Positions 1 to 56,050 of a stretch of 64,000 bases of DNA are shown one piece after another. This DNA comes from a virus. A program made the position numbers and the translations under genes. A model generated the notes under the pieces. The model made no database searches. It saw only the letters and a list, made by a program, of their open reading frames with translations, and was not told the DNA's origin. Position 1 is the first letter of the stretch, and each line of letters starts with the position of its first letter. The stretch spans positions 43,023 to 107,022 of IMG/VR virus record IMGVR_UViG_3300044638_008494; one strand, given 5' to 3'.

Positions 1-1145
1 CTCAATCCTGTTGGTACGCCACTTTTATACAAATTAACAGTAATGCCTGTTATGGTCCAATATTTTTTATGGTACTCTTGAATTCCGCTCTGTTGAAAAA
101 TTCTTCCACCAAATTCACTATTTGTGATATAGCCATTAGATGTATTACTGTATATATTTTGATTATTATTAGTATTGCTTGATAATATTAAATTATTCTT
201 TACCGGAAGATCAAAATTAAACCATGCAGTTGTATTTGCAGTATTTGGCTTTATAAACCATGATCCAGTAAAACTATCTTGATATCCATTTAAAAATCTA
301 TTATTGTTTTGCAAGCCAGACAAAGTTACAAAAAATCCAGAAGTTTTAGAATAGGTGCTATATAAGTCTAGAATAATATTCCAGTTTGAATATAAATCTG
401 AAATATTTAGCGTATCCAAAGATCCAACAACTACATTTCCTACAACGCTTAAAACGCCTGATTCAAGTGGATTTGAAAATCTTAATATTGATAATGTTTG
501 ATTTATAGTTCCAAAATTTGTATTTAAAACTAACGGAAGATAATAGCTAGAATACGGTTCGCTTTGTAAAATTGTTAAATCTACGTAAGACTGTGGATCT
601 ATCTGTATATTTTTATTTTGATTTCCAGAAAAAACAAAATAATTAGTAGCGTTACTTGTAGGATTTATATTAATATCATGTACAACAAATGGAAATGAAT
701 TATTTTGATCGCCAGATATTTTTAAATTTAATGGATTTTTATAATAATCAGCCTGCTTATATATAATATTATATAACGGCCTGTCTCCATTTATTTTAAT
801 ATCTAAATCTTTTTCAAAATTCAAACTACCGTTCCAAGATAAATTTATTCCAGAGCAAAATCCATAATCTCCTGTTGTATTATAAATAATATTATTGTCA
901 ATAGATAAATTAAAATTATTTTTTGATAAATTTCCAGATAGATTAAAAAATTTATTTTTTGGATCAACAAAATATATAAAATTATCACTTTTATCTTTTA
1001 TCTTGCCACTTTCTATTGTAATTTTTTCTCGCACATTTTGAGATAAAAAATCAAAATTCGTACTATAAAAATTATCATAATTCATATAGCTTATGCTAAA
1101 TGATATTCCACTTTGAGGATAAAAATTTATACCAGAATATTTCAT
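1..1145 (-). CDS. Probable virion/tail protein, truncated by the left window edge (not in ORF track)
   Basis: ATG at 1145 overlaps the TGA of the upstream gene (ATGA); reads MKYSGINFYPQSGISFSISYMNY...; frame open where checked (start and window edge); last gene of the tail cluster. Confidence 0.7.
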   Translation of the reverse strand, partial: MKYSGINFYPQSGISFSISYMNYDNFYSTNFDFLSQNVREKITIESGKIKDKSDNFIYFVDPKNKFFNLSGNLSKNNFNLSIDNNIIYNTTGDYGFCSGINLSWNGSLNFEKDLDIKINGDRPLYNIIYKQADYYKNPLNLKISGDQNNSFPFVVHDININPTSNATNYFVFSGNQNKNIQIDPQSYVDLTILQSEPYSSYYLPLVLNTNFGTINQTLSILRFSNPLESGVLSVVGNVVVGSLDTLNISDLYSNWNIILDLYSTYSKTSGFFVTLSGLQNNNRFLNGYQDSFTGSWFIKPNTANTTAWFNFDLPVKNNLILSSNTNNNQNIYSNTSNGYITNSEFGGRIFQQSGIQEYHKKYWTITGITVNLYKSGVPTGL

Positions 1146-40203: not shown

Positions 40204-41421
40204 ATGCAAGTTTATCCGTTAAGAGATGCGTTACACCCATCAGCACTATTTTTTATTGAAAAATGTGACAGCTTAGGGGTTGAATTAAATGCTCAGGAAG
40301 CAGAAGCTGTTAATTTTTTAGTCACCAGATTAATACAAACAAATTTGTGGAATAAATTTAGAGTAATATATCCATTTGTTGGAAGAAGTGCTAAAACACA
40401 TAGTTTAAATTTAAGAAATATTTTTAGACATAAAGTAAATTGGTTTGGTGGAATTTGGCATGATAAATTTGGAATAAATGCAGATGGTGTTTCCGGATAT
40501 GGAAATACCTATTTTGCGCCATCTTGGCTTGATGATGAAGACATTCATGTTTCAGTTTATACTGGAACGTACTGGTCGGACGCAAATGAAAACTGCCCCT
40601 TGATAGGTACAAGCAGCAGTTCTGTTAGTGTGCCCAATCGTGGCTTGGGCTGGATGCACGCAATATATTTAAGATCCCCAACGCCAACCATAGCTTATGA
40701 AGAAAATGGAATCACGCATTATAAGTTACCCCCAGTTTTCACATACTCGTGCACGCCACCAGACAGTACAGCTTCATCTGGAATGTTTGCCGGAGAAGAT
40801 GCTTCGAATCAAAATCATTGGTTAGCGCACGGTTTAATTGCTGGAACAAATGGAAGAAATTGCTATGTGTGTGGTAAAAGATTTGGAGTTAGCATGTCTC
40901 AAGGAGGATTTAGAAATCCAATCAATCCAGAGTCCGGAAATGACCCCATAGAAGGTAAACGTATTTTATATAGTCAGTTTCCTTTTTTATTATTTGGCAA
41001 TGGGCGTTTTGGAAGCAGCGGTCAGGCAAGAGGCAAAGGAAATTTACGATTTGCTAGCATTGGTTATAATTTAACTGAAAGTGAAAATAAAATTTTTTAT
41101 GATATAGTTAATGGGTTTCAAACAATTTTAAATAGAAATGTTCCGTGCAATGAAATAAACCCAGTACCGGCTTTGTATAAGGAAAAAACAACATTTTATC
41201 CATCAATAAATATAACAGGTGGCAAAAGAAAAATTGGTCGGTTAATTAACCAAATGAAGGACTTTACAAGATTAACTCCAGATAAATCTTCGAGATATAA
41301 AAGAGATGCTCTGTCAGCATCAATGACAATAAAATCATGTACAAGAGTTGGTCCAAGAAGAATTTTTTTGGGTGATGGCGCGATGCCATCTGTTGCAATA
41401 CTAGATTTAATAGAAAACTAA
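40204..41421 (+). CDS. Virion protein, family A (LWNKF..IYPFVG; LamG-like)
   Basis: Paralog of 46284-47126 and, more distantly, of the N-terminus of 50268-53627. Confidence 0.6.
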   Translation: MQVYPLRDALHPSALFFIEKCDSLGVELNAQEAEAVNFLVTRLIQTNLWNKFRVIYPFVGRSAKTHSLNLRNIFRHKVNWFGGIWHDKFGINADGVSGYGNTYFAPSWLDDEDIHVSVYTGTYWSDANENCPLIGTSSSSVSVPNRGLGWMHAIYLRSPTPTIAYEENGITHYKLPPVFTYSCTPPDSTASSGMFAGEDASNQNHWLAHGLIAGTNGRNCYVCGKRFGVSMSQGGFRNPINPESGNDPIEGKRILYSQFPFLLFGNGRFGSSGQARGKGNLRFASIGYNLTESENKIFYDIVNGFQTILNRNVPCNEINPVPALYKEKTTFYPSINITGGKRKIGRLINQMKDFTRLTPDKSSRYKRDALSASMTIKSCTRVGPRRIFLGDGAMPSVAILDLIEN

Positions 41422-41451
41422 AGATATAATTTTATTATAACTAATCGCTTA

Positions 41452-42582
41452 ATGAATGTTTTTTTAAGAAAATTTAAAGAATACAATATTTCTCCAAATA
41501 TTGGTATAGGCGGCTATTGGAATATAGCAATAGTTAACAAAAATGGCCAAGAAAAATTTCCATTTGGTCATCATATGAAAAAAAATATGATACTTGATCA
41601 AGGACTTGACATATTAGCTTCCAATAAATATTATACTAGTTATGGCGGATTGAACTGGAACGCCACTTCTGCATTTCTATTAGGCGATGCTGTCCTTGGC
41701 GGATCTTCTATACCAGTAAGCCCTTCAGACGTTTCGCTTAACAATGAGTTACAATCGACTAATATTATTAATGATGATTCTTGTACAATAAATGATGATT
41801 ATATAAATGGATCCAGAACTTTTAGAAAAGTTTATGACTTCCAAACCCCCCAATCTCCAATAGCGGTAAGAGAGTTTGGAATTAGAACTAGATTTAATGC
41901 CGTGAACAATCAAAATAAAATGTTTTCAAGATTTGTGTTGCCTGAAAATATTTCTATAGGCACGCAAGAATTTGTAAGGTTATTTTATGATTTTACAATA
42001 AAATGCGATGCAATTGTTAATCCCATAAATGTTACAAGATCTTCCGGAACATTAAACTGTAATGGTGTTTTAAAATTATGCGGCAGATTTGATGATATAT
42101 TCGGAGCATATGATGCTAATGGAAATCCAATTATAAGATACGGAGATTCGCCCCAATCAACATTTATGCCATATTGTGAAGAATTTTGTGTGCAGGAAAA
42201 TTGCTTGCATAAATGCATCGGCACTGCCTATTTAATAGCGGACATATTTATACCAACTAGTCCCGGCTCATCAATTATTGGCGAGTGGGTTGGTTCAAAA
42301 CCAACAGAGGATGAAAATACAGTAATAGCATCATCATATATAAATGGCAATTTTTACAGAGACATAACATATATATTTGAAAGAGGAAATCCTTTTGAAA
42401 ATAAACCCTTTCAAGGTTTTTTATTTAGTACGGCAAAGTCTGATAGAGAAAATACGGTAGCCGGATGGTTTTGGGAATTTAATAATAAACAAATTAAATT
42501 AATAGAAAAAGAAATTGTAATACAGATAAGGCAATCTATGTCAAGGATAGATACGCCAGATACCATGTCGTATGCACCATAA
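41452..42582 (+). CDS. Tail-fibre attachment-like protein, family B
   Basis: PFG...KN.ILD...SRTF...YDF...E.G...SRF.LP...YDF motif set shared with 42572, 53656 and 54806. Confidence 0.6.
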   Translation: MNVFLRKFKEYNISPNIGIGGYWNIAIVNKNGQEKFPFGHHMKKNMILDQGLDILASNKYYTSYGGLNWNATSAFLLGDAVLGGSSIPVSPSDVSLNNELQSTNIINDDSCTINDDYINGSRTFRKVYDFQTPQSPIAVREFGIRTRFNAVNNQNKMFSRFVLPENISIGTQEFVRLFYDFTIKCDAIVNPINVTRSSGTLNCNGVLKLCGRFDDIFGAYDANGNPIIRYGDSPQSTFMPYCEEFCVQENCLHKCIGTAYLIADIFIPTSPGSSIIGEWVGSKPTEDENTVIASSYINGNFYRDITYIFERGNPFENKPFQGFLFSTAKSDRENTVAGWFWEFNNKQIKLIEKEIVIQIRQSMSRIDTPDTMSYAP

Positions 42583-45500
42583 TCAAAGCAATAATATTAA
42601 AGCAGATGCCAATGCCGATGCTTTTGTATCGGCAAAATGGAATATTCAGATATGCCAATCTGGAGATATTGACGGTTCTAAAACAATATACCCGTTTGGT
42701 AAAAAAATGAGAAAAAATGCCATTTTAGATAACTGGCTTAGATCGGTAATATTACTATTTCAACAAACTCAATCAAATGTGAAGACCTTAGATGGGTCTG
42801 TAAATATGCGAGAGCTTACTCGTGGATATATACAATTAGGAACCGGAATTAAACCAATATCTTATTCAGATGTTCAATTATCATCATTTATAAGAGAGAG
42901 TGATTATATAAGGCCCTTTTATGGGTTTGAGACTGGTTATGGAATAATAGAATCAGGCGCAGCAATTTTTAGAAGAAGTTATGATTTTTTACCAGAAGTT
43001 AAAAATATAACATATACAGAGGCTGGTTTCAGGCCATACGCCGCATCTCTTATAAACGATAATAATTTAAAAAATAAAATATGGTCTAGATTTTTGTTTA
43101 CTGCAGAAACAGGAGTGATAGGCTTTTTAAGCGGATATATAGATAATAGTGGTATTTTTAGAATGTTTGATCATGAGATTGATCATGTAAGTGGTGTTTT
43201 TGTAGCCAATGATAAATATAATATTTCACCATTCAAATCCCGAAGAAATGAAAGAATAATTGGATTTGTAAGCGGATTTAGATTTCCAAACGGGCAATTC
43301 TCTGGGTATGCTCCAGACCCAAGATATAACTTAAGTGGTTACTTTGTAAGCGGTACAAAATATAATTTTAATCCAATTACAGAACTTTCCAACCAGCCAA
43401 TAACAGGTTATATATCTGGATATGCAGATGAGTTTGGTAATTTTTCAGGGTTTAGTAATCGTTCAATATCTGGAGTTAGTGGTTATTTTATAGATAATAA
43501 TGCTTACAAATTTAAACCAAATAGATATTTTGAATCGGAAACGATCACTGGCTTTATAAGCGGATCAATTGACAAATACAATAATTTTTCAGGAAATATT
43601 AACAATCCTTCAAGTGGGTATCTAATAAATAGCGAAAAATATAATTTTCCAACAGGAAATATGTTTTCTGGCTTTTCAGGTCAAGATTATTTTTATGACG
43701 ATTGGGGTTATAATTATAGTGGATTTAATAATATTAACAGTGGATTTTCAGGCAATAATAAATTTAATGAAAAAATAATTGGATATATAAGTGGATATTT
43801 AAATGTATCTGGAGTTTTTTCCGGATTGAATCTTTTGAATACATCATCCGGATCAAGTGGTTATTTTATTGACAATCAAAGATTTCAATTCCCATCCATT
43901 GGATTTAATAAATTTGATAATCAATATTTGTTTAACAAAAACATCGGATATAATTATACTGGGTTTAACTTTGCTGATGGTAGTGGATTTTCTGGCGTAG
44001 AATTTGGCAATTCTGGCTTATGTATAGTAACTGGATTTATTGGTGATAGAAATTTTTATACAGGAAACGGCATTTATACTAATGATATTGGAAATAGAAT
44101 TTTATTAAAATATAGTGGAGAATTTAGCGGTTTTGATGGAGAAATATTAACTCAAGACATAAAAACATATTCATATTCAACTGTTAATTTCTTCATTAGC
44201 GGAACTAGTGGATTTAGCGGTATCAGTGGAGCGATATCTGGTTATGGAATATTAACAGGAATAATTGGTAGCCGCACAATATTTTATAAAAGTGGTCAAT
44301 TCGAAGCCTTTGAAAATAATCAATTATTTCAAAAATATTTGGATTATAAATATACTGGATTTTCTTTTCCGCAAGGTAGTGGTTTTTCTGGTACAGATTT
44401 TTTAAATTCCGGTCACGGCATAATGACTGGATTTATTGGAGATAGAAATACAGTTAATTTTTCTGGTAGATACAGTGGCCTGAGCGGAATACCAACTCAC
44501 GAATATGGATGGTACTATACAGAAGAAGGTTTTTTTGGCTCAGGGCTTCCAAATTTTACAGGAACTTTTACTGGCGGAAAATTTGATATAGGCCTAACTG
44601 GATTTAGCGGAACACCATTTCCTTCTGGAGAAAAAATTATAGGTTTTATAAGTGGATACGTAAATGAATTAAATAGTTTTGTTAGATTTGACAACGTCAA
44701 CGTTCCAAATTTTACAGGATATAGTGGTTATTATACAGACAATAGACAAAGATTTTTTCCAACAGGAGATTTATTCTCTGGATTTTCTGGGCAAAGCGGC
44801 TTTGATGCTAATTTGCAATACAGATTTACGGGGTTTAGCTTTCCAGAAGGAAGTGGTTTTTCGGGAAATGCCTGGCCTATAATTCAGAAAGAAAACGTTG
44901 TTGGATTTATAAGCGGTTTCATGACTGAAGTTCAGCAATTTATACCATTTCAAAACCTATATCCAGAACTATCATCAAGCGGATATTATATCAGTGGAGC
45001 CCAAAGATTTTTTCCAACTGGAAATTTATTCTCTGGATTTTTTGGACAGTCAGGGCTAGATGTGTCAGCATATGAATATTCTGGATTTTTCTTATCTGGC
45101 CCGAGTGGTTTCAGTGGTGCCAACTTTATTGGATCCGGAACTGGAATATTAACTGGAATTATAGGATATAGAAAATATCCAACATACCCATTTTCTGGAA
45201 GTGGAGTAATAACTGGATACATTGGCGACCGAAATGTTTTAAAATATAGCAATACTGGCATACTTACAGGACTTATTGGTTACAAAGATTATATCTCCGG
45301 TGTCCAACTTGAATATGGTCAATTTGTTAGAGTTACTTATGAAGTTATGAGCCGTATCCCAATGCTTACTGGAGCAATTCAAGTAACAGGGTCTAATTTA
45401 GTAGACGGAGGTTTTAATGCAAGTGGACAATTAAAGCTTATTGGTTTATATGAATATATTTTTGGCTACTGGAAAATGAGAAACAACGGAAGACACACTG

Positions 45501-46282
45501 AAGGGCCATTTGTTGAAGGCTTTTGGTGGCCATCAAATCCGGTTCATTGCTTTAGAGATTGGAGAGTTCCTAATGTTGCCTGCCCATACCCGCTAACACA
45601 TTTAAGTGCAAACTTAATACAGTCTGGGTATGGAACATTTCCGCCAATAGATCAAGTGCGAAGATTACCAGCAGTTAACTTCAATAATGATGAGGCTGGC
45701 TGCATGACAGCATCTACTAGAGGCCCTGACTGCTCACAAGGAGCAAATCAATTTATTTTAGATATTAAAAGGCAAGTAAGGTGGTCTTCAAGGGAGGAAA
45801 TACCAGATGATGGAGATGATAGAATAGACTCTCGTGTTCCAATCTATCCCGTTGTAAGCAATGGTCTTGTTCAAGAAACTTATGACCAAAACACAAAGCC
45901 AGCATATGTAGATATAAAAATAATATTTCCAGCAGAATATCCAAATGCAGATGTTGCTATTAATGGTATATATATATCACCATCAATAGATGAGTGTGTT
46001 TTGTGTCAAGGAGGAAACAGTTGCTTTAATCAATTCTTAAAACCTTACAGTCCAGATCCTGAATGGATAGTCTACCCGTGCAAATCTGGATGGACACCAG
46101 ATCAAGGAGACTATCATGTTGTAAAAAATGAAGATATGCCTGACAGTATAAAAGCAAGCTATGGGATAAGCGGCAGGCAGGGCGTCGGATGGGCATATCT
46201 TTTCAACACGCCGCAAATGAAATATGAAGATCAAAAAATAGAAGTAGATTTTAGATTTTCTATGGTTAGAGACATAATATAA
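42572..46282 (+). CDS. Family B fibre protein carrying seven nested SG modules
   Basis: Family B domain split between WSRFLF and GVQLEYGQFVRVTY by a ~730-aa SG/TG-rich insert. Confidence 0.65.
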   Translation: MHHNQSNNIKADANADAFVSAKWNIQICQSGDIDGSKTIYPFGKKMRKNAILDNWLRSVILLFQQTQSNVKTLDGSVNMRELTRGYIQLGTGIKPISYSDVQLSSFIRESDYIRPFYGFETGYGIIESGAAIFRRSYDFLPEVKNITYTEAGFRPYAASLINDNNLKNKIWSRFLFTAETGVIGFLSGYIDNSGIFRMFDHEIDHVSGVFVANDKYNISPFKSRRNERIIGFVSGFRFPNGQFSGYAPDPRYNLSGYFVSGTKYNFNPITELSNQPITGYISGYADEFGNFSGFSNRSISGVSGYFIDNNAYKFKPNRYFESETITGFISGSIDKYNNFSGNINNPSSGYLINSEKYNFPTGNMFSGFSGQDYFYDDWGYNYSGFNNINSGFSGNNKFNEKIIGYISGYLNVSGVFSGLNLLNTSSGSSGYFIDNQRFQFPSIGFNKFDNQYLFNKNIGYNYTGFNFADGSGFSGVEFGNSGLCIVTGFIGDRNFYTGNGIYTNDIGNRILLKYSGEFSGFDGEILTQDIKTYSYSTVNFFISGTSGFSGISGAISGYGILTGIIGSRTIFYKSGQFEAFENNQLFQKYLDYKYTGFSFPQGSGFSGTDFLNSGHGIMTGFIGDRNTVNFSGRYSGLSGIPTHEYGWYYTEEGFFGSGLPNFTGTFTGGKFDIGLTGFSGTPFPSGEKIIGFISGYVNELNSFVRFDNVNVPNFTGYSGYYTDNRQRFFPTGDLFSGFSGQSGFDANLQYRFTGFSFPEGSGFSGNAWPIIQKENVVGFISGFMTEVQQFIPFQNLYPELSSSGYYISGAQRFFPTGNLFSGFFGQSGLDVSAYEYSGFFLSGPSGFSGANFIGSGTGILTGIIGYRKYPTYPFSGSGVITGYIGDRNVLKYSNTGILTGLIGYKDYISGVQLEYGQFVRVTYEVMSRIPMLTGAIQVTGSNLVDGGFNASGQLKLIGLYEYIFGYWKMRNNGRHTEGPFVEGFWWPSNPVHCFRDWRVPNVACPYPLTHLSANLIQSGYGTFPPIDQVRRLPAVNFNNDEAGCMTASTRGPDCSQGANQFILDIKRQVRWSSREEIPDDGDDRIDSRVPIYPVVSNGLVQETYDQNTKPAYVDIKIIFPAEYPNADVAINGIYISPSIDECVLCQGGNSCFNQFLKPYSPDPEWIVYPCKSGWTPDQGDYHVVKNEDMPDSIKASYGISGRQGVGWAYLFNTPQMKYEDQKIEVDFRFSMVRDII

Positions 46283-46283
46283 T

Positions 46284-47126
46284 ATGTTTAATAGGCAAGG
46301 TACAGATTTTGTAAATGGTCTTGTATATCCGCTTATAAATGCAGCGGGTGGTGAAGATAAATTTTTAAGACACGAAATCGGAGCACTCTCTGAGCTTGCA
46401 GATGCACTAGTTCAATTTAATTTATGGAATAAATTTATAGCCATTTATCCATTTGTGGGAAGAAATATAATCACATCGTCTTTTAATTTTAAAAACCCAC
46501 AACAATATAGAATATCATGGTATGGCGGATTACTTTTTGATAAAAATGGCGTTACAAACAATACAAACTCCTCTTATGGCCAAACAAATATTCCACTGAC
46601 TTTTTTTCAAAAGAATATTAATAATGTTCATATTTCTGCTTATAACAGAACAGACATAAAAGATGTTATTGGAGATGGTAGAATGATTGGTGTGAATACA
46701 TTAGAAATTGAAAGAAATGTAAAAGATATGGGGGCATTTGAACTAAACTTTGGCAATAACAATGGGATTATTGGATATGTTTATAACAAAATAAATGATC
46801 TGGGAGGCTTTGGTCTTCTAAGAAACGAAATGATAAGTAGTGGTATTTCTGGCAAAGGCCTGATGATAGGTCTTAATACAAGCCATTGCTATCTAAATGG
46901 CCAAACCTTTGGGCGCTGGTTTCCGGCATTACCAACGGAAATTCACGATACAAATAATAAAACATTATTATTATTTGGAAATAGATTTTTTACAAGAGTT
47001 ACTTCGAGTGCAAATATCAACCTGTCATTTGCTAGTGTTGGTTATGGATTAAATAAAATAGATGTATATAATTATACAAATATTGTAGAAAACTTTCAAA
47101 AAGCAATGTTCAGATCAGCACTGTAA
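46284..47126 (+). CDS. Virion protein, family A
   Basis: LWNKFIAIYPFVGR...HISAY...LLFGN...FASVGYGL, matching 40204-41421. Confidence 0.6.
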   Translation: MFNRQGTDFVNGLVYPLINAAGGEDKFLRHEIGALSELADALVQFNLWNKFIAIYPFVGRNIITSSFNFKNPQQYRISWYGGLLFDKNGVTNNTNSSYGQTNIPLTFFQKNINNVHISAYNRTDIKDVIGDGRMIGVNTLEIERNVKDMGAFELNFGNNNGIIGYVYNKINDLGGFGLLRNEMISSGISGKGLMIGLNTSHCYLNGQTFGRWFPALPTEIHDTNNKTLLLFGNRFFTRVTSSANINLSFASVGYGLNKIDVYNYTNIVENFQKAMFRSAL

Positions 47127-47127
47127 T
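47122..47127 (+). promoter_or_regulatory. Putative late promoter motif TGTAAT
   Basis: TGTAATATAAATAT-ATG, overlapping the upstream stop. Confidence 0.5.
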
Positions 47128-47135
47128 ATAAATAT

Positions 47136-50100
47136 ATGCCAAGCGTCTTTTCCATCGAATCTATCAATCTAAATGGCTCATTATTAACAGCCAATAATGA
47201 TAGGCTGTACATAAATGGCCAACAAGTAAAAAATACTTCTGGTGTTCAAATAAGCGAAAACTTTTTTATAAAAGGATATGCGCCTATTTCTTTTTATAGC
47301 CGATGGGCGGTTAGAGGTCAATATTTAAATGAAACATTATTGAATGACCTATTTATGGCCACTGGGTATGTTATTACCTGCGGATATCCAGCAACAGGAT
47401 CTATACCTTTGCAGGGAAGATTTTATCAAAGAAAAGTAGATTCAGTCATAGATGTTAAGCCAATAGCTGATTTTGAACTGCCACCAAGACAGGTGTATGT
47501 GCAAAAAGCTATTTCTGAAAAAATATATCCAGATAGTGTTTTGGGCCTTGATATAGCGCAAGCGCCAAATGAAATGCGAGCAATATCATGCCATTTGCTC
47601 GGATATTTTCCAGCGGCTGGCCACTTTGATAAGATGCCAAGAACTTTTAATTTTTATAGCCAATCTGAGCCAAAAGTTGGAAATGGAGCATACGAAGAGT
47701 ACATGCAATATAACGCAACATTTACAGGTGTTTCATTGTATTGTAGCGAAACGGGTCGTGGCCCAACCACATACCGTCAAGAAATAACAGGATATATAAG
47801 CGGATTTTTACAAAACGAACCGTTATATATTCCACTAAGTAGAGAGGCTGTTTATCAAACTTGTGATCCGTGCTATTCTCCACCAAATATGAGTGACTGG
47901 AGTGGATATTTTATAGATGGTAAAAAATATAATTTTAATACAGGAAATCAATTTTCTGGATTCAACGGAATATCTTTATTCTCGCAACAGTCTGGTTATG
48001 AATATTCTGGTTTTAAATTAAACAGCGGTACGTTTTTCAGCGGCTACTCTGATAGTGAATATGGGTTTGGCGAAATGCTGGAAACAGTAGGGTGGAGAGT
48101 GGCGCCATATCCAGAAACTGTTTCCGGCTTTATAAGCGGATACAGAACATCTGGCGGTAGTTTTATATTGCTTAGTGAAATAACAGGCTCTCGTGTTAGC
48201 AATTTTCCTCTTGATCCTAGCGGATATATAATAGGATCTAGTGGTTACTTTTTGAGTGGACAACAATACTTCTTCCCAGATATGATGCCAAGAAGGCAAA
48301 AAGTGGTTGGCTTTTTAAGTGGGTTTATGAGTAGTAATGGTATATTTACCCCATACCATACAACCAATCCTTTTACAAGCGGAAACAGCGGTTACTTTAT
48401 AACAAGACAATATTTTTTCCCAACAGGAAGATTTTTTTCTGGCTTTTCTGGTATGCCAGGCTTTTTAAATAATGCTACTGGTTATGGTTTTGTTTATTCT
48501 GGATTCGGTTTTCCAGAAGGTAGTGGATTTTCAGGCATGCAATTTACAACATCTGGAAGCGGCATAATGACTGGGATTATTGGTACTGGTGTTGTAATTC
48601 CAGATACAATATTTACAAGATTCAGCGGAATGTTTGGGTTTCAAGAAAATATGGGGTATGAATACTCTGGAATATTTTCAGATATATCAAGTAACTTTTT
48701 TTCCGGAATATTTCCTGATAGTTCTGGGGGAATTACTGGAATGGTAATTGGAAAAATTGGATATAGAAATGTTCCTACAAGGCGAGAAATTTCTGGCTTT
48801 ACAAAAGCCAAGTCTGTTACCAATTTTAGTGGATTTAATATTACTGGAAATAACATATCTGGCCTTAGCGGATATTTTATAGACAACAGGACAGTTTCAT
48901 TTTTAACAGGCGCCCCAAACCGCGATCTTTTAATAAAAGGCTTTGAAGGTTTTGATAATGAAAGTGGTTTTGATAATTTTGGATATGAGTATTCTGGGTT
49001 TCTTACAATGCCAAGCAGTGGATTTTCTGGACTCGGTATGCCATATCTTTTTTCAGAGCCTGTGACTGGATTTGTTAGTGGATTTTTAAGCGGACAAAGT
49101 AATACATTCATTAGGTTTACTGGATTTTCTGGTTCTAGCGGATATATCCTTGACGGAGACAAATATCATTTTCTACCAGCAAGATGGAAGAGTGGTCAGA
49201 ATATAAGCGGCTTTCAAAGTGGCACTGTAGACATATCCACCGAACAATTTGTACCTTTCAGCTTTCCAAATTCATCGAGTGGTTATTACATAAATGGAGT
49301 TCAATACTTTTTTCCAACAGGAACTGGGATAGATAATAGATTTAATGGATTTGATGATTCGCTGTTTGGATTTGACATGTCTATTGGATATTCTTATACT
49401 GGATTTGCAGGATTTAGCGCGGCTACAAATTTTAATCAACCGCCGAGGTTTCAAAAAGTTATTGGGTATATAAGTGGACTCCAAGATACATTCAATAGAT
49501 TTACCGGATTTCAACTTTTAAATTCAGCGTCTGGCTCAAGCGGATATTTTATAAATGGCAGAAGATATGTTTTTCCAATTTCTAATATGAGTGGATTTTC
49601 TGGATTAGGCCAGTTCTTTTATAATAATTTGGGCTTTTCATATACTGGATTTAGTTTTCCAGAAGGTAGTGGGTTTTCCGGTACAGTTGCTCAGCCATAT
49701 ACCCGAGGAATAATGACAGGCTTTATTGGTTTTAGATTGCTGCCCTCAGGTACTGGCATGATTACTGGCATGATAGGCTCTCGAAATGTTCCGCAAAGTT
49801 CTGGAACTTTTAATGGATTTAATGGGCTTAGCGGGTTCAATTTACAACAGGGCTACCAATACAGTATAGATATAAATACTTTTAATTATACAAATGCTAA
49901 TTTTATAGGTGAAAGCGGTCTAACATCTGGTCTTGGAGTTATAACTGGAAATATTGGGTATAGAAACGTGATCAGGCTTGATAAAAATTTTGGGACAGGA
50001 ATAATAACTGGAATTATAGGTTATAGAAATGTGCCATACATGAGCGCATTTAGCGGAAAATTTTACCGAAAAGACAAGTATGGAAATAAAAATATTCTTT

Positions 50101-50258
50101 TTCCATTTTCTATAAATTCTGGTGAATTATATAAAGAATATGACTCTAATTCTGTTGGATTTTTTATATCGGGCGGTAGCAGGCTAGGAATAGATATAGA
50201 CAATACACTTTCAGGAATTGGTGGTGTTAATATAGTAATGGAAGGTTTTTACGATTAA
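47136..50258 (+). CDS. Virion fibre protein carrying seven nested SG modules
   Basis: Two copies of the 28690-type domain; the second is split by a ~750-aa SG insert. Confidence 0.65.
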   Translation: MPSVFSIESINLNGSLLTANNDRLYINGQQVKNTSGVQISENFFIKGYAPISFYSRWAVRGQYLNETLLNDLFMATGYVITCGYPATGSIPLQGRFYQRKVDSVIDVKPIADFELPPRQVYVQKAISEKIYPDSVLGLDIAQAPNEMRAISCHLLGYFPAAGHFDKMPRTFNFYSQSEPKVGNGAYEEYMQYNATFTGVSLYCSETGRGPTTYRQEITGYISGFLQNEPLYIPLSREAVYQTCDPCYSPPNMSDWSGYFIDGKKYNFNTGNQFSGFNGISLFSQQSGYEYSGFKLNSGTFFSGYSDSEYGFGEMLETVGWRVAPYPETVSGFISGYRTSGGSFILLSEITGSRVSNFPLDPSGYIIGSSGYFLSGQQYFFPDMMPRRQKVVGFLSGFMSSNGIFTPYHTTNPFTSGNSGYFITRQYFFPTGRFFSGFSGMPGFLNNATGYGFVYSGFGFPEGSGFSGMQFTTSGSGIMTGIIGTGVVIPDTIFTRFSGMFGFQENMGYEYSGIFSDISSNFFSGIFPDSSGGITGMVIGKIGYRNVPTRREISGFTKAKSVTNFSGFNITGNNISGLSGYFIDNRTVSFLTGAPNRDLLIKGFEGFDNESGFDNFGYEYSGFLTMPSSGFSGLGMPYLFSEPVTGFVSGFLSGQSNTFIRFTGFSGSSGYILDGDKYHFLPARWKSGQNISGFQSGTVDISTEQFVPFSFPNSSSGYYINGVQYFFPTGTGIDNRFNGFDDSLFGFDMSIGYSYTGFAGFSAATNFNQPPRFQKVIGYISGLQDTFNRFTGFQLLNSASGSSGYFINGRRYVFPISNMSGFSGLGQFFYNNLGFSYTGFSFPEGSGFSGTVAQPYTRGIMTGFIGFRLLPSGTGMITGMIGSRNVPQSSGTFNGFNGLSGFNLQQGYQYSIDINTFNYTNANFIGESGLTSGLGVITGNIGYRNVIRLDKNFGTGIITGIIGYRNVPYMSAFSGKFYRKDKYGNKNILFPFSINSGELYKEYDSNSVGFFISGGSRLGIDIDNTLSGIGGVNIVMEGFYD

Positions 50259-50267
50259 AAAATAGCA

Positions 50268-53200
50268 ATGTTACATGAAGATATCATCGATCCGCTTGTT
50301 ACTGATTACATCGACAGAGTTACTGGCGAAGGACTAAACTATTTTAATGCCAACGCCACCACTAGATTAAATGATTTTGTAAAATATTTAGTTAGCGTTA
50401 TTCCGGATAGACAGTTTGGCTTTTACCCGCTCAGAAGTGACCAAAATATCGGTAACGGAAATAAAGCGTTTGGAATAGGCAGGTTAGCCTCTGGAAGTCC
50501 AATGATTTTTCCTGGCTTAGCTCAGTGGACAGAAAGCGGCGTAATGTTTGGTGATAAGGTTAGACCTGGCGGAACGTTTGGACCAACATATGAAACGGTT
50601 GGCATGATAGATTTTTCTGGCAAAGTTGAAGGGGGATTTGCTTTTAGAGAAAATGACTTTTCTATATTTTATTTTTTAAAACACCAAAGAGCTGGTGAAT
50701 TTGCAACCTCACTGTATCGTGGCGAAGGTGGCTTATGCCCATATTTTATATGTGATAAATCTCCAGATTGGTTTCAGGCTATTGCTCCAGAGTTTTCAAC
50801 AAGCCGTTTTCGTCCAAGAGGTACAACATATATATATGATGAAATATTTGGCGAAGATAAAAAAGGATTACAAATAGACTGGAGCCAAAAAGAAACTGAA
50901 AAATATTATGCGCCCACCGCAATAAGTTTTTACGATCCTGATAAAGACCAGACAGAGCCGAGATTTTATTGTCTTAATTTAAATGGAAATTTAAACCATT
51001 ATTCCATGAAATTTATCTACGGCAGAGATCCAAACATGCTTTCTGGAAATTTTTTATCACCATACGTTGCTGTTGCTGGGTTAGAAGGTCAGCCAGTTAG
51101 ATATGATATGCCGAAAAGATTTGTTGCTGGCGCTGGCGCAACAAACGACAGAGCTACAGAATATAACAGAGATGGGTTGCCTCATATAGTTCCTGGTATT
51201 TTAATTACAAAAGGCAATTATTCATATATTCATGAAGAAATAGCACAAAATATGGCTGAAGCTATTGGCTTGCTATTTGCAGTAAAACCAGTACAAATTT
51301 CAGGTCTTCAAGACCATGCTTCTAATATTTGTAGTCCAAAAATCGTATCATTAGATTATTATAAAACAGAACCAAAAATATATGATAAGGTATTACAAGG
51401 ATTTGCAAATTTTACAGCAAAAATAAGCTCAATAATAATTGAAGATTATGGTAGGTGGTTGACTGATTTTATTGCTAGCTTATGCGGAACAGATATTGGC
51501 GGCGTTGTTAGATGTTTTGGTGGATGGACTGCTAGATCTCCAATTGAAAAAGCAGAAATACGCCCAACGCTAAATTCTGGATTGTATATTACTGGCAACC
51601 AAATAACAGGAACATATGGAAATTTAAAATTGGGAGAATTTCACAATAACGGAATAGTAGGTTTTGTTAGTGGATATATGGACGTTTCTGGAAACTTTAG
51701 CGGGTTCCAATCACGTACAATTTCAGGACACAGTGGATTTTACTATACAGGATCTTATAATGTTTTCCCCCCATATCAATTTTTTGAAGTACAAAAAATT
51801 ACCGGATACGTTAGTGGGTTTTTAAACAATAGCGGATCATTCGATATATTTAATTCCACACATCCATATTACAATAGTGGATATTTTTTAAGTGGCCAGA
51901 TTACAGATTTTACATATTCATTAATTGAACAAGAAGATATATCTGGATTTCAATATGGTTTTTTAAATAATTTATTAAATTCTTGGGAGCCATTTGCTTC
52001 AACAAATAAATTATCATCAAGCGGATACCTATTAAATGGACAATTTATTGAATTTTTACCAGAAAAAATAATCGAAAAAACTCCAGTTACTGGATTTCGT
52101 GTTGGTTTTATGAACGGCCTTGGTATTTTTTCTGGATACTCAACTGGAGAAGGTGGTACAAGCGGTATATTATTAACTGGTGACGTTTTTTCTGACGATC
52201 CAAATTCAAGAATATTTTTTCCACTCGATGGCAATTTTGTAGGATTTGATGGCATTTCTGGATTTGATCCCGAAATTGGGTATGAGTATAGCGGATTTGA
52301 TTTTTTTGATTCTAGCGGATTTATTTCTTTTGATCAAGCTAATCCGTTTTTTGGAACCGGAGAAATGACGGGGCTTATTGGTTATAAATACATTGTTTAT
52401 TTATCTGGGGAATTTTCTGGGGAAAATAGCATTACTGGCGTCAATGAAGGCTTTGGGCTAGATTTCAATGGATTTTTTGATGGAGACACTTATTTTTCGG
52501 GAGTTGAATTTGACCCACTAACAAATAGTTTTTTGAATTATGGAACTGGATATTTAATAGGCAAAATAGGTACAAAAAATGTTCAAAACTTTTATGGTGA
52601 TCCTGGTTTTGATAATAGACCAGGGTTTGATCCGCTTGCTGGTTATAGCTATACTGGCTTTTCATTTCCAGAAGGTAGTGGCTTTGCTGGTATAAACGGA
52701 AATACTTTCGGAACAGGGTACATGTCAGGATTTATTGGTTCAAGAAATTTTATTGACTATACTGGCATATATTCTGGATTTACTGGTTTACTAGATAAAT
52801 ACAACCAGTATTTACCATGGGTTATATTTCCAAACTTTGAATTTACTCGAGGAAGTGGATTTATTGGATCAGTTCCTGGTTATGGTTTATTAACTGGAGT
52901 AATAAGTACTGGAGATGTGAGCGGCGATGCAGCGTTTGTTGTAAGCAATATTGGATCAGGCCTTTATCTAACTGGCCTACAAAGAACGGGAATAAATATA
53001 TCTGGTATTGATTTTGGACCAATAGATTTTTCAATTGGAAATATAAGCGGAATGGTTACTGGGGCAAGCTATACTCTCGCTATTATAAGCGGAGGAACGT
53101 TTTTTGAAACAGGATATACTGGATTTAATTCAGGAACAGATTCTGGATATTATGATATAAAATCTGGAACATATATGAGTGGACATATTACTGGATTAAG

Positions 53201-53627
53201 TTATATTACAGGAAATCTGTCAATTGGCAGTGGCTTGTTTTATGAACTAGAAACTGGATTTACGTTTGAGTCTGGATATATTGATGCAAACGTAACAAGC
53301 GTAACATTAACAGAAGCAATCTCTGTATTATTAGTGGTTCAAGACGGTGTTCCAGAAACCACATCTTTTACTTCAAGCATTACTGGTATTATATATGCAT
53401 CGGCTGATATAAATACTGGCCTAAGTATGGAAACTGGATCGGTTTCTGCAACCATCACTTCTATCGATCACTATACATTCTTACGTAACGATGTGACTGG
53501 AAATTTTGAAACTGGTTATTATAATATAAGTGGACTATATAGGATCAGCACTGCATATCCAGCAATAACCGGAGAAAATATATACTACAACATATCTGGA
53601 GTGCTATTAAAAACAGGGTCCCCATAA
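50268..53627 (+). CDS. Virion fibre protein carrying four nested SG modules
   Basis: Family A-like N-terminus, nested SG region, S/T/G-rich C-terminus. Confidence 0.62.
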   Translation: MLHEDIIDPLVTDYIDRVTGEGLNYFNANATTRLNDFVKYLVSVIPDRQFGFYPLRSDQNIGNGNKAFGIGRLASGSPMIFPGLAQWTESGVMFGDKVRPGGTFGPTYETVGMIDFSGKVEGGFAFRENDFSIFYFLKHQRAGEFATSLYRGEGGLCPYFICDKSPDWFQAIAPEFSTSRFRPRGTTYIYDEIFGEDKKGLQIDWSQKETEKYYAPTAISFYDPDKDQTEPRFYCLNLNGNLNHYSMKFIYGRDPNMLSGNFLSPYVAVAGLEGQPVRYDMPKRFVAGAGATNDRATEYNRDGLPHIVPGILITKGNYSYIHEEIAQNMAEAIGLLFAVKPVQISGLQDHASNICSPKIVSLDYYKTEPKIYDKVLQGFANFTAKISSIIIEDYGRWLTDFIASLCGTDIGGVVRCFGGWTARSPIEKAEIRPTLNSGLYITGNQITGTYGNLKLGEFHNNGIVGFVSGYMDVSGNFSGFQSRTISGHSGFYYTGSYNVFPPYQFFEVQKITGYVSGFLNNSGSFDIFNSTHPYYNSGYFLSGQITDFTYSLIEQEDISGFQYGFLNNLLNSWEPFASTNKLSSSGYLLNGQFIEFLPEKIIEKTPVTGFRVGFMNGLGIFSGYSTGEGGTSGILLTGDVFSDDPNSRIFFPLDGNFVGFDGISGFDPEIGYEYSGFDFFDSSGFISFDQANPFFGTGEMTGLIGYKYIVYLSGEFSGENSITGVNEGFGLDFNGFFDGDTYFSGVEFDPLTNSFLNYGTGYLIGKIGTKNVQNFYGDPGFDNRPGFDPLAGYSYTGFSFPEGSGFAGINGNTFGTGYMSGFIGSRNFIDYTGIYSGFTGLLDKYNQYLPWVIFPNFEFTRGSGFIGSVPGYGLLTGVISTGDVSGDAAFVVSNIGSGLYLTGLQRTGINISGIDFGPIDFSIGNISGMVTGASYTLAIISGGTFFETGYTGFNSGTDSGYYDIKSGTYMSGHITGLSYITGNLSIGSGLFYELETGFTFESGYIDANVTSVTLTEAISVLLVVQDGVPETTSFTSSITGIIYASADINTGLSMETGSVSATITSIDHYTFLRNDVTGNFETGYYNISGLYRISTAYPAITGENIYYNISGVLLKTGSP

Positions 53628-53655
53628 ACATTTAACTGTAAATAAATAAAATAAG

Positions 53656-54741
53656 ATGAATGAAAAAAATATAATTATTTCACAAAATAATGTGGCCGGA
53701 ATAAGTGGAGAATATTTAATCCAAGTTATTAAAAGTGATGGAAGTGTTGAATTTCCATTTGGGCAAGAAAAAAGAAAAAATTTAATACTTGATAGTTTTT
53801 TCCGTGCAATTTTGACTGGATATAAATTTGGAATACAGTCATTCGTACAAACCTGCCGAGTGGGTAATAATATTCAAGCACCAGTTAGAACAAACACAGG
53901 TCTTGTTGGGACTATTCTTGGGCAAACATATAAGAGTGATAATTTTATATCTCAAATAAACAGTCAAAACAATACCATTTCGCTAACACGCGATTTTATT
54001 TTTGACGCTATCCCTGGTGGAATTGGGCAAGTTTCTTATGCCGAGGCCCTAATTGGTAGCTTTGCAATAAATGAAATTAGCGAAATTGCAACAAGTAGAT
54101 TTGTTTTTCCCGGCACGCTAATTTTACAGAGCGGAGATCGCTTAAAAGTACAATATACATTGACGATTTATCTCCCATATTTAAATAGCGATTTGCCAAT
54201 AACGCTGACTGGCGATGGATTAAATTTTACGGGAAAGGTAAGGCTATCATCAAATGTTACTGGAATAATAGGTCAATTGAGCGGCAGTAAAACCTATGTT
54301 GGTTTGGGCGATAGCGACACAACTGTATTTAGAGATTATACAGCAAACAGCAATGCTTTTTCTACAACCACAGAATTTCAAGAATACGGTAGGTATCAAA
54401 ATATTTTTGGCACGCCACTATGGGCCAACAATATTGGTTTTTATCCGAGTGGGCACATTCCAGCCAATTATCCTACGGGAAGGCTTGATTATACACCAAC
54501 AGGAAGCCGAGCAACATTAACAACGGGCCTTATAGATCAAAATGATAATTACAGTTCAGTTCCTATAACATACTATTTCCCACCATTTTCTGGAGATCGC
54601 AGCGTTGGTGGCATATATTTGTGGCACCATAATACAGGCTCATCATACAGCGCGATATATTATTCATTTAATAGTGGGCAAGTAATACCATCCGGGCTGC
54701 CCGTAACAATAACCTTAGACTGGCGATTCTCCAGATCATAA
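53656..54741 (+). CDS. Tail-fibre attachment-like protein, family B
   Basis: FPFG...KNLILD...SRFVFP...LKVQY. Confidence 0.6.
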   Translation: MNEKNIIISQNNVAGISGEYLIQVIKSDGSVEFPFGQEKRKNLILDSFFRAILTGYKFGIQSFVQTCRVGNNIQAPVRTNTGLVGTILGQTYKSDNFISQINSQNNTISLTRDFIFDAIPGGIGQVSYAEALIGSFAINEISEIATSRFVFPGTLILQSGDRLKVQYTLTIYLPYLNSDLPITLTGDGLNFTGKVRLSSNVTGIIGQLSGSKTYVGLGDSDTTVFRDYTANSNAFSTTTEFQEYGRYQNIFGTPLWANNIGFYPSGHIPANYPTGRLDYTPTGSRATLTTGLIDQNDNYSSVPITYYFPPFSGDRSVGGIYLWHHNTGSSYSAIYYSFNSGQVIPSGLPVTITLDWRFSRS

Positions 54742-54805
54742 ATAATAAAAATAATATTTTAATTCCAATTGGATGTGTATATAATAGAGAAAGTAATATA
54801 AAATT

Positions 54806-56050
54806 ATGGCGAATTTAATAATTAATCGTACTCGTGAAGTAGAGGTTGGTACTGAAACATTTGTAAAAGGAATGTGGAAGCTAGAAGTGGTTTGCCCAAA
54901 TGGGGAAATAAAAAAACCATTTGGCGATGGGTGGAGACCAAACTTGCTTATGCGCAGAGGCTTACAGCAGCTAGTTGGCGGCCTTGATGGGTTCTCAAGT
55001 ATAGCATATCTAATGAATACAGCGCAGTACGGTAACGTGGTTACCTCACCAACAGATAGAACTTTTAATGGCGGGCTTGTTAATAGCACAGCCTATCCAA
55101 GTATTACAAACGATACCCAGCTTGGCATATTTGGTTTTAGTGCTTTTAGTAGCGTTGGCGCGGCAGGAAATATAATAACTGACAATTTAAATACTGGATC
55201 AAGAACTTTTCAAAAAACATATGATTTTTTAGCAACACCAAACCAGCAAACAGTAAGAGAAATTATAATAACTGACTATCGGGACCCTAACAACCCAACC
55301 GTTAGAGGTACTGGTCGTGCGGATAGCGACATGCTTTCAAGATTTATATTGCCATCGCCAGTTGTACTCGCTCAATACCAATTTTTGAGACTTACATATG
55401 CTTTGCAAATTACCATCCCAGCAATTACTGCCGCTGGTGAAGTAAATATTGATGTACAAAGCGGAAGTTTTAACGGTCTTGGCAAATTAAGATGTGTTGG
55501 CTCTTTTAATCAAATATTTGGCTCAATGACTACGAATGGTGAGCCAATTGATACTCTTTTTCGTTCTGCATTCTGTGGAAATATTACCAAAAGAAATCCA
55601 TGGTGTCTTGTTAGTAGTTTTAGAACACATGCAACGCTTGTTCCTGGCGGTGACCTGTCTGGAACCGCACAAATGGCATTTCCGGCAGTTAATACAGATG
55701 TTAATGCATCCATAGCAGCACAAACTAGCGCGGCATCTGTTCAAAGTGATGGTGCTGGCGGAAGCGTTATTGATCTAGGGCTTTCAAATGGAAACTTGTC
55801 GTGGACACGAGGTGCAACACTATTATTCCCAGCAACAAATCCAAACCTGCCAGATCAATATATAGGCGGAGTTTTTTTTACGCCAGGAGCTAGTACAGGA
55901 TCTAGCTGTAATACTGCACTAAGTACAGGATTTGACTTTTCTGGCTGGTACTGGAGATTTGTAGATCTTTCTGGAAACCCTCGTGGACAACTCAAAGACA
56001 TTAACTTTGCCCTTGCCATTAATGTAGCACACACGGCATCTATTACATAA
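54806..56050 (+). CDS. Tail-fibre attachment-like protein, family B
   Basis: KPFG...NLLM...GSRTFQKTYDF...SRFILP...LRLTY. Confidence 0.6.
   Translation: MANLIINRTREVEVGTETFVKGMWKLEVVCPNGEIKKPFGDGWRPNLLMRRGLQQLVGGLDGFSSIAYLMNTAQYGNVVTSPTDRTFNGGLVNSTAYPSITNDTQLGIFGFSAFSSVGAAGNIITDNLNTGSRTFQKTYDFLATPNQQTVREIIITDYRDPNNPTVRGTGRADSDMLSRFILPSPVVLAQYQFLRLTYALQITIPAITAAGEVNIDVQSGSFNGLGKLRCVGSFNQIFGSMTTNGEPIDTLFRSAFCGNITKRNPWCLVSSFRTHATLVPGGDLSGTAQMAFPAVNTDVNASIAAQTSAASVQSDGAGGSVIDLGLSNGNLSWTRGATLLFPATNPNLPDQYIGGVFFTPGASTGSSCNTALSTGFDFSGWYWRFVDLSGNPRGQLKDINFALAINVAHTASIT

Follow-up and report, generated by a model that had tools for sequence, protein, structure and literature searches.

Insertion of a domain into copies of itself is very rare and has been documented mainly in cyanobacterial RNA polymerase (RNAP) and, two deep, in ferlins. 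In cyanobacterial RNAP, the Si3 insertion consists of eight sandwich-barrel hybrid motif (SBHM) domains, four of which are discontinuous, and forms a 150-Å rod in the trigger loop (PMC10895346); this recursion has six levels and includes bifurcating nodes (PMC13114784). The DysF fold, which is nested in ferlins, has two long antiparallel terminal strands, connected by a loop of 77 residues that carries short capping strands (PMC3898210). The contractile sheath proteins (T4 gp18, pyocin, diffocin) contain "Russian doll" insertions in which each domain lies in the previous one (PMC6088184). Here, we analyzed a stretch of 64,000 nucleotides (hereafter the window; positions 43,023 to 107,022 of the virus record IMGVR_UViG_3300044638_008494). 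In the window, the open reading frame (ORF) at 42572-46282 on the plus strand is open over 1236 residues (C1236) and carries, at 43115-45298 (residues 182-909), the element in question, an insert rich in Ser-Gly (SG) and aromatic residues. We consider it probable that this insert comprises seven β domains of ~100 residues each, generated by recursive insertion, and that these domains form a two-armed out-and-back rod, possibly a fiber.

The C1236 insert (hereafter the nest) resembles RNAP Si3 in three respects: (i) it has several homologous β domains of ~80-100 residues, some of which are continuous and others split across distant chain segments, (ii) the nesting is multi-level with nodes that carry more than one insert, and (iii) the presumed elongated rod is inserted into a host element at a loop, and the copy number of the domains varies by lineage. 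The two differ in that (i) fold and family are not the same, the phage nest having no Pfam match, (ii) Si3 is part of a cellular enzyme whereas the nest is part of a phage fiber-like protein, (iii) the phage genes number three paralogues per genome and occur in many variants of depth between close relatives, and (iv) the phage nest has two fixed insertion sites that are recognizable from sequence. Recursive homologous insertion, i.e. contiguous as well as split modules in a balanced order, is found in the three genes and in their relatives. The SBHM fold is not found: single modules have no Pfam match at E ≤ 10, and their layout is that of terminal strands plus a loop. The phage modules are an analogue of the SBHM family and not a member of it. 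The sheath proteins share with the nest that a phage tail protein is built by successive insertions; however, their nested domains are not mutually homologous, reach at most approximately four levels without branching and belong to a sheath subunit and not to a fiber. The original prediction, made from the sequence before our analysis, noted that a phage fiber with this recursive topology was not known to have been described. In the literature we came across neither a phage fiber of this kind nor this domain family, but the principle has precedents in RNAP Si3, DysF and the sheath proteins. New are the domain family, its occurrence in a phage and the stepwise variation; the nesting principle itself is known.

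The module nest in C1236 and its host domain

Each module consists of an opener (O), a middle (M) and a closer (C) and is ~100 residues long, and C1236 has seven copies. Regular expressions locate seven openers at residues 182, 229, 277, 325, 402, 689 and 776 and six canonical closers. To avoid circularity, a hidden Markov model (HMM) of the module was built solely from six uninterrupted, complete modules of three neighboring genes. Its partial matches along C1236 follow in the order O, O, O, OM, full, MC, MC, (M), OM, full, C, and the HMM positions at which they break define two sites, site A at positions 44-50 (after YFFP) and site B at positions 80-83 (before the closer). When O, M and C were each given a newly built profile of their own, based on 134 complete modules, 19 of the 21 pieces of C1236 reached the threshold of ≥6 bits.

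Following the chain in window coordinates on the plus strand, the nest starts with opener 1 (residues 180-222, 43109-43237; O profile 25.3 bits) of module 1, which is broken at site A and at site B and is in this way the branch point. Opener 2 (residues 225-272, 43244-43387; 38.3 bits) and opener 3 (residues 273-320, 43388-43531; 49.1 bits) are broken at site A, and opener 4 plus middle 4 (residues 321-396, 43532-43759; O 36.1 and M 31.7 bits, HMM positions 2-82) at site B. Module 5, the putative tip of arm A, is complete (residues 398-495, 43763-44056; HMM 1-99, E 8e-39). It is followed by the degenerate closer 4 (GNGIYTNDIGNR, residues 496-512, 44057-44107), by middle 3 plus closer 3 (residues 514-571, 44111-44284; HMM 38-98, E 3e-10; M 6.4 and C 18.1 bits), by middle 2 plus closer 2 (residues 573-628, 44288-44455; HMM 40-98, E 3e-17) and by middle 1 (residues 629-672, 44456-44587; HMM 46-82, E 2.1 and not significant), which is a degenerate conserved hub. 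Opener 6 plus middle 6 (residues 685-767, 44624-44872; O 48.6 and M 39.5 bits), broken at site B, then precede the complete module 7 (residues 771-869, 44882-45178; HMM 1-99, E 1e-37), the putative tip of arm B, and the nest ends with closer 6 (residues 870-890, 45179-45241; C 23.5 bits) and closer 1 (residues 891-908, 45242-45295; C 10.8 bits). The linkers at the junctions are short and uniform, with 7 residues from O to O, 8 from M to O, 4 from C to C and 5 from C to M.

A valid bracket order arises by chance in 0.7% of cases if the contiguous units of C1236 (13 units) are shuffled and in 3.3% and 25% for the two sister genes; if single pieces are shuffled, the chance is 1.9e-5. A head-to-tail repeat or solenoid of a single unit was not found, as there is no array with the period of the module and the profile positions break off and resume. 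The seven-module nest in C1236 as first described is real and confirmed: the order of openers, middles and closers that the original prediction gave is the one obtained with the HMM from contiguous modules, each module resumes at the HMM position at site A or site B where it broke, and the mapping, which had been named as a way to refute the reading, returned ordered and balanced pieces in all three genes.

Closer 4 and middle 1 can be aligned to the profiles and fill gaps of the expected size, at the places that the bracket grammar calls for. Closer 4 can also be aligned to its counterparts, the outer closers, in 11 further nests at site B, and middle 1 is nearly identical in the relative P0045. 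In the orthologue of a phage with 62% identity, closer 4 is 76% and middle 1 is 82% identical (the latter in the L002 orthologue), both of which exceed the average of the protein. These values bear on the possibility that only uninterrupted modules fold and that the split pieces are relics, i.e. decayed, Gly/Ser-rich flexible linkers. The degeneracy of closer 4 and of the middles 1 and 3 would be compatible with decay; however, the degenerate pieces are 76-82% conserved, the identity to the orthologue is 66.5% for split modules compared to 72.9% for complete modules and 46.5% for the C-terminal part of the host domain, and the outer pieces in the structural model described below have regular strands and predicted local distance difference test (pLDDT) values of 69-91. 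We regard it as very unlikely that the split pieces are relics.

A metagenome as the source together with a repetitive protein sequence could also point to an artefact of assembly or gene calling. However, contigs from four other lake-water studies carry the C1236 gene with 0 differences, 0 indels and 0 joints, a single unbroken 2334-nt piece covers 43876-46209, and the stretch occurs in sequencing runs of 24 studies on lake-water and freshwater metagenomes. Moreover, the DNA of the module copies is only 60-80% alike, a search for a module-sized tandem array gave none, and orthologues on other contigs keep the same order. On the basis of the agreeing contigs, the divergence of the copies and the lack of a tandem array we reject an assembly artefact as well as recent DNA duplication, and an artefact of assembly or gene calling is hardly conceivable.

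The nest was proposed to lie inside a family-B domain, and alignment with the paralogues B376 (41452-42582) and G361 and H414 (53656-56050), all on the plus strand, bears this out. The N-terminal part of the host domain (residues 1-176, 42572-43099) ends with WSRFLF, the C-terminal part (residues 910-1236, 45299-46279) begins with GVQLEYGQFVRVTYEV, and both parts align with the three paralogues, in which the domain is uninterrupted and has no nest. SRFLF and EYGQFVRVTYEV, between which the nest sits, lie a few residues apart in the paralogues. The nest replaces a hairpin turn of the family-B domain and, therefore, its two ends must meet. Among the PHROG families, phrog_4176 ("tail fiber protein") matches B376 (E 1.6e-8) and G361 (E 5e-8) and weakly the N-terminal part of C1236 (E 0.054); the whole C1236 protein has no match to it, the nest itself has no PHROG match, and no solved structure was found by sequence for the phrog_4176 family. 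These weak matches and the paralogy suggest a role as a fiber or virion appendage.

Sister nests and whole-module variation among relatives

Two sister genes on the plus strand obey the grammar of C1236 in the HMM and in the O/M/C profiles, with different trees. In E1040 (ORF 47136-50258), the nest covers residues 214-966 (47775-50033) and has the tree ()(())(((()))). In F1119 (ORF 50268-53627), it covers residues 461-884 (51648-52919) and has the tree (((()))), corresponding to the piece order O O O [full] MC MC MC.

The module family is rare. Among 1.84 billion representative proteins, searching with the profile detected only 21 representative clusters, and a word-seeded search added further proteins to give 56 relatives in all. 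Seven distinct syntenic phages were found in IMG/VR, each with two or three module-bearing genes. With an automatic threshold, 31 of the 56 relatives parse as perfectly balanced and represent 13 distinct valid architectures, which range from ()()() to ()(((())))(((()))) with depths of 1 to 4. The parser failures are three end-truncated fragments, one divergent M-only protein and, for all others, proteins in which one or two short pieces are missed; none of the 56 relatives has a balanced set of pieces that is misordered. In P0008, P0013 and P0047, three tandem complete modules stand alone.

The topology of the nest is identical in the 62%-identical phage, and module 1 with inserts at both sites is conserved across the C family. 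Where orthologues differ in length, they do so by blocks that measure one, two or three modules: (i) compared to the E1040 type, P0025 has exactly one complete 100-residue module fewer, right after YFFP, and the flanks are near-identical, (ii) P0045, which is 83% identical to C1236, has one complete module in place of modules 2-5 and is 305 residues shorter, equal to three arm-A modules, with hardly any change in opener 1, middle 1 and arm B, and (iii) P0002, which is 65% identical, has 283 extra residues that make up three complete modules at approximately residues 546-553, in site B of module 3. In total, the C-like protein of the relatives varies from 618 to 1488 residues, mostly through module number. 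Growth by self-insertion is seen directly in these whole-module differences, and the gain or loss of entire modules for which homologues were to be compared is found as clean indels. With three genes per genome and at least 13 architectures, the family provides a natural series on the evolution and folding of discontinuous domains, in which outer modules cannot close before the whole inner nest is made. It also carries a warning for annotation, as standard domain and repeat finders show only partial, seemingly scrambled matches.

Further proteins deviate from these patterns. The 633-residue C-like protein encoded at 9470-11368 of contig L009 is the shallowest member of the C family and has two complete modules in the same host-domain loop, separated by ~130 residues (273-402) with no module-profile match. 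P0022 (434 residues) has three matches to the module middle only, ~130 residues apart, and may represent a distant family with a different repeat plan. In F1119, residues 885-1119 (52920-53624) downstream of the nest form a different Gly/Thr/Ser/Tyr-rich region with TGxxYxxSG-like motifs and no module-profile match save one stray (E ~0.2-0.5).

Predicted structure and a model for the chain path

Residues 685-892 of C1236 (O6 M6 [module 7] C6) were modeled by AlphaFold2 (AF2) using an alignment, referred to as A3, with 37 rows, of which 12 are site-B nests and 25 are complete modules. The mean pLDDT is 82.3 (78-82 for the five models) and the predicted template modeling score (pTM) is 0.52. In the model, a module has an N-terminal strand of 12-16 residues, a loop of ~70 residues with five short strands and a C-terminal strand of 12-16 residues. 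DSSP assigns the terminal strands to model residues 86-100 and 172-187 of the inner module (module 7, domain 85-187) and to 2-13 and 193-204 of the outer module, with opener 6 and middle 6 at 1-82 (pLDDT 69-91) and closer 6 as strand 193-204 (pLDDT 81-89). All seven strands of the intact inner module recur, column by column, in the interrupted outer module, including its closer 110 residues downstream. In VIA-align against 48,161 chains, the rows cover either 85..187 of the model or 1..~208 with ~55-89 residues aligned to targets of ~100 residues, and none ends at the break; these two classes of rows indicate that the model has two domains, the outer of which is discontinuous. For this one site-B pair, the model supports that the split pieces of the outer module form one domain. 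The high pLDDT combined with a middling pTM would fit two rigid bodies with an uncertain hinge. The original prediction had proposed structure prediction as a check for long-range contacts between openers and their closers, and it would have been contradicted by openers joined solely to sequence-adjacent segments. In the modeled pair 685-892 the opener is not paired only with adjacent sequence, the pLDDT being 82 and the outer closer a confident strand; for this one site-B pair, the reading was not refuted.

Other predictions and searches were less informative. AF2 with the single sequence of the F1119 nest (residues 457-921) had a pLDDT of 29, and a complex prediction of opener 2 (residues 223-274) with middle plus closer 2 (residues 572-630), each with its alignment, speaks neither for nor against pairing (score 0.16, mark 0.32). 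Foldseek of the model against PDB and BFVD gave no match; nor was a match found in PDB by sequence, in the ESM Atlas (best score 0.84), among GenBank phages by tblastn or, for the proteins or five single modules, in Pfam (E ≤ 10 for the modules).

The top VIA-align rows for the outer as well as the inner module are DysF chains (4cah_B, Z 3.6, rmsd 5.6 Å over 89 residues; 8p5p_A, Z 3.6; 9h6x_D, Z 3.1), with scores below the level that the tool treats as meaningful. As in the ferlin DysF domains (dysferlin and myoferlin; DysF is also present in TECPR1 and Pex30), the sequence of the pieces is N(outer) N(inner) C(inner) C(outer), and the AF2 modules share the layout of long terminal strands plus a long loop, the strand pairing not being readable from the model. 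In contrast to the nest, ferlins are eukaryotic and their nesting stops at two levels. Moreover, stacks of Trp and Arg stabilize DysF; the phage modules, by contrast, are rich in Phe, Tyr, Gly and Ser, and their consensus shows Phe/Tyr, with a single conserved Arg located in the closer. Given that neither the protein nor five single modules match DysFN or DysFC in Pfam, that the Z scores of 3.1-3.6 are weak and that the rmsd is ~5 Å, homology to DysF is not claimed. Our broader proposal, on which we are evenly divided, is that the modules are an undescribed family of a small clade of freshwater siphophages that makes branched, length-adjustable fibers by self-insertion, that they are the first viral example and the best-resolved series of homologous nesting (depth 1-4, up to 10 modules, single-module gain or loss between near-identical relatives) and that they are perhaps a remote relative of DysF.

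The pieces could also be explained by two types of repeats in blocks, an opener array and a middle/closer array forming side-by-side layers with no discrete nested domains. The simple piece order in F1119 (O O O [full] MC MC MC), the short SG(F/Y) strand motifs that are typical of solenoids and the pTM of merely 0.52 would all be in agreement with such layers. By contrast, the existence of two break sites, with C alone after OM and MC after O, the balanced counts across 13 architectures, the indels that take out one O+M+C set at once and the three tandem complete modules that P0008, P0013 and P0047 carry alone argue for discrete domains, as do the strand pattern of a free-standing module in the AF2 outer module and the separation of two ~100-residue domains by VIA-align. 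We therefore consider layered arrays unlikely. Alternatively, an opener may be completed by the middle and closer of another chain in an oligomeric fiber, i.e. by domain swapping. Phage fibers are usually intertwined trimers, which would favor this possibility; however, the linkers of 4-8 residues at all junctions fit hairpin-like returns within the chain, the loop of the host domain forces both ends of one chain together, and the monomer AF2 model is confident. Such intermolecular complementation appears to us to be slightly less likely again than layered arrays.

Nesting of homologous domains within one chain is the reading that we prefer, and the proposal of an out-and-back domain that inserts into itself draws support from the grammar of the pieces, the whole-module indels and the site-B model. 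We suggest that a whole module can enter either of two loops, at site A after ...YFFP or at site B just before the closer strand. In this model, the chain would run outward via openers 1-4 to the tip module 5 and back via closer 4, middle plus closer 3, middle plus closer 2 and middle 1; it would leave again from site B of module 1 via module 6 to the tip module 7 and return via closers 6 and 1, so that each returning piece completes the domain begun by its own opener. Antiparallel pairing of the terminal strands as in DysF would bring both chain ends to one pole, and for this reason a module could be spliced into the loop of another. Site B would lie at the far pole, immediately before the closer strand, and an insert there would extend the rod end to end; the consecutive closers (C7-C6-C1 in C1236; C7-C6 followed by M5C5 and C4 in E1040) would represent the chain zipping back. 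Insertions at both sites of module 1 would generate two arms, one of modules 2-5 and the other of modules 6-7. For the site-A nests, the geometry would be the one suggested by the order of the pieces, and a module may measure ~4-5 nm judging from the terminal strands of 12-16 residues in the model. The meeting of the chain ends would let the whole nest plug into the hairpin loop of the phrog_4176-like family-B host domain, and a lineage would alter arm length by gain or loss of whole modules. With both chain ends at its base, such a rod could be fitted to any surface loop and extended by one module at a time, which would be a useful design principle. The protein may be a virion fiber or adhesin in which the Tyr/Phe/Gly/Ser-rich rod reaches or binds the host surface, and self-insertion would be a plausible route for a phage to tune reach and branching of an appendage for host recognition with the anchor domain untouched.

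Several observations weigh against this model. Closer 4 and middle 1, i.e. two of the 21 pieces, are degenerate and stay below the HMM threshold. A Mantel test between opener similarity and middle/closer similarity in the 18 modules of the window gave r 0.09 (p 0.38); since the two matrices are uncorrelated, co-duplication of the parts is not demonstrated for old events. The discontinuity of the outer domain is deduced from the aligned ranges in VIA-align and from DSSP, the AF2 model covers one nested pair at site B, site-A nesting being based on sequence grammar and comparative data, and with a pTM of 0.52 the model does not fix how the modules are oriented relative to each other. Most phage fibers being intertwined trimers, a monomer model could mislead. 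Finally, the function as a fiber leans on PHROG matches of paralogues (E ~1e-8), and the gene cluster is divergent from the tail genes. Mean-field direct coupling analysis of 131 complete modules ranked the true partner first in 38% of cases at site A and 34% at site B (expected, 20% and 19%); this pairing is weak and confounded, as the training set includes shallower orthologues of split modules, and is not used as support. The signal from mutual information with average product correction (MI-APC) is dominated by invariant columns.

Gene cluster and source phage

The genes at 40204-56050 form a plus-strand cluster that is divergent from the head and tail genes. In addition to the family-B and nest genes, it contains a second paralogous family consisting of A405 (40204-41421), D280 (46284-47126) and the N-terminal ~460 residues of F1119 (50268-51650), which share the motif LWNKF..IYPFVGR and have no Pfam or PHROG match. 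Genes of this type alternate with those of the family-B and nest types, and the order is the same in related phages.

The IMG/VR record holding the window is 107 kb long, linear and ~70% complete. The phage is uncultured, and none of the sequencing runs listed for the stretch is an RNA run. The window encodes a large terminase, for which the best identity to any cultured phage is only ~23%, and a tape-measure protein of 3108 residues (8370-17696, minus strand) with PF10145 at residues 121-311, the length of which implies an exceptionally long tail. Related contigs among the uncultivated virus genomes (UViG) of IMG/VR (L005/L008/L013 and L010/L012) reach 133-171 kb, suggesting that the genomes of this freshwater clade may be well above 100 kb.

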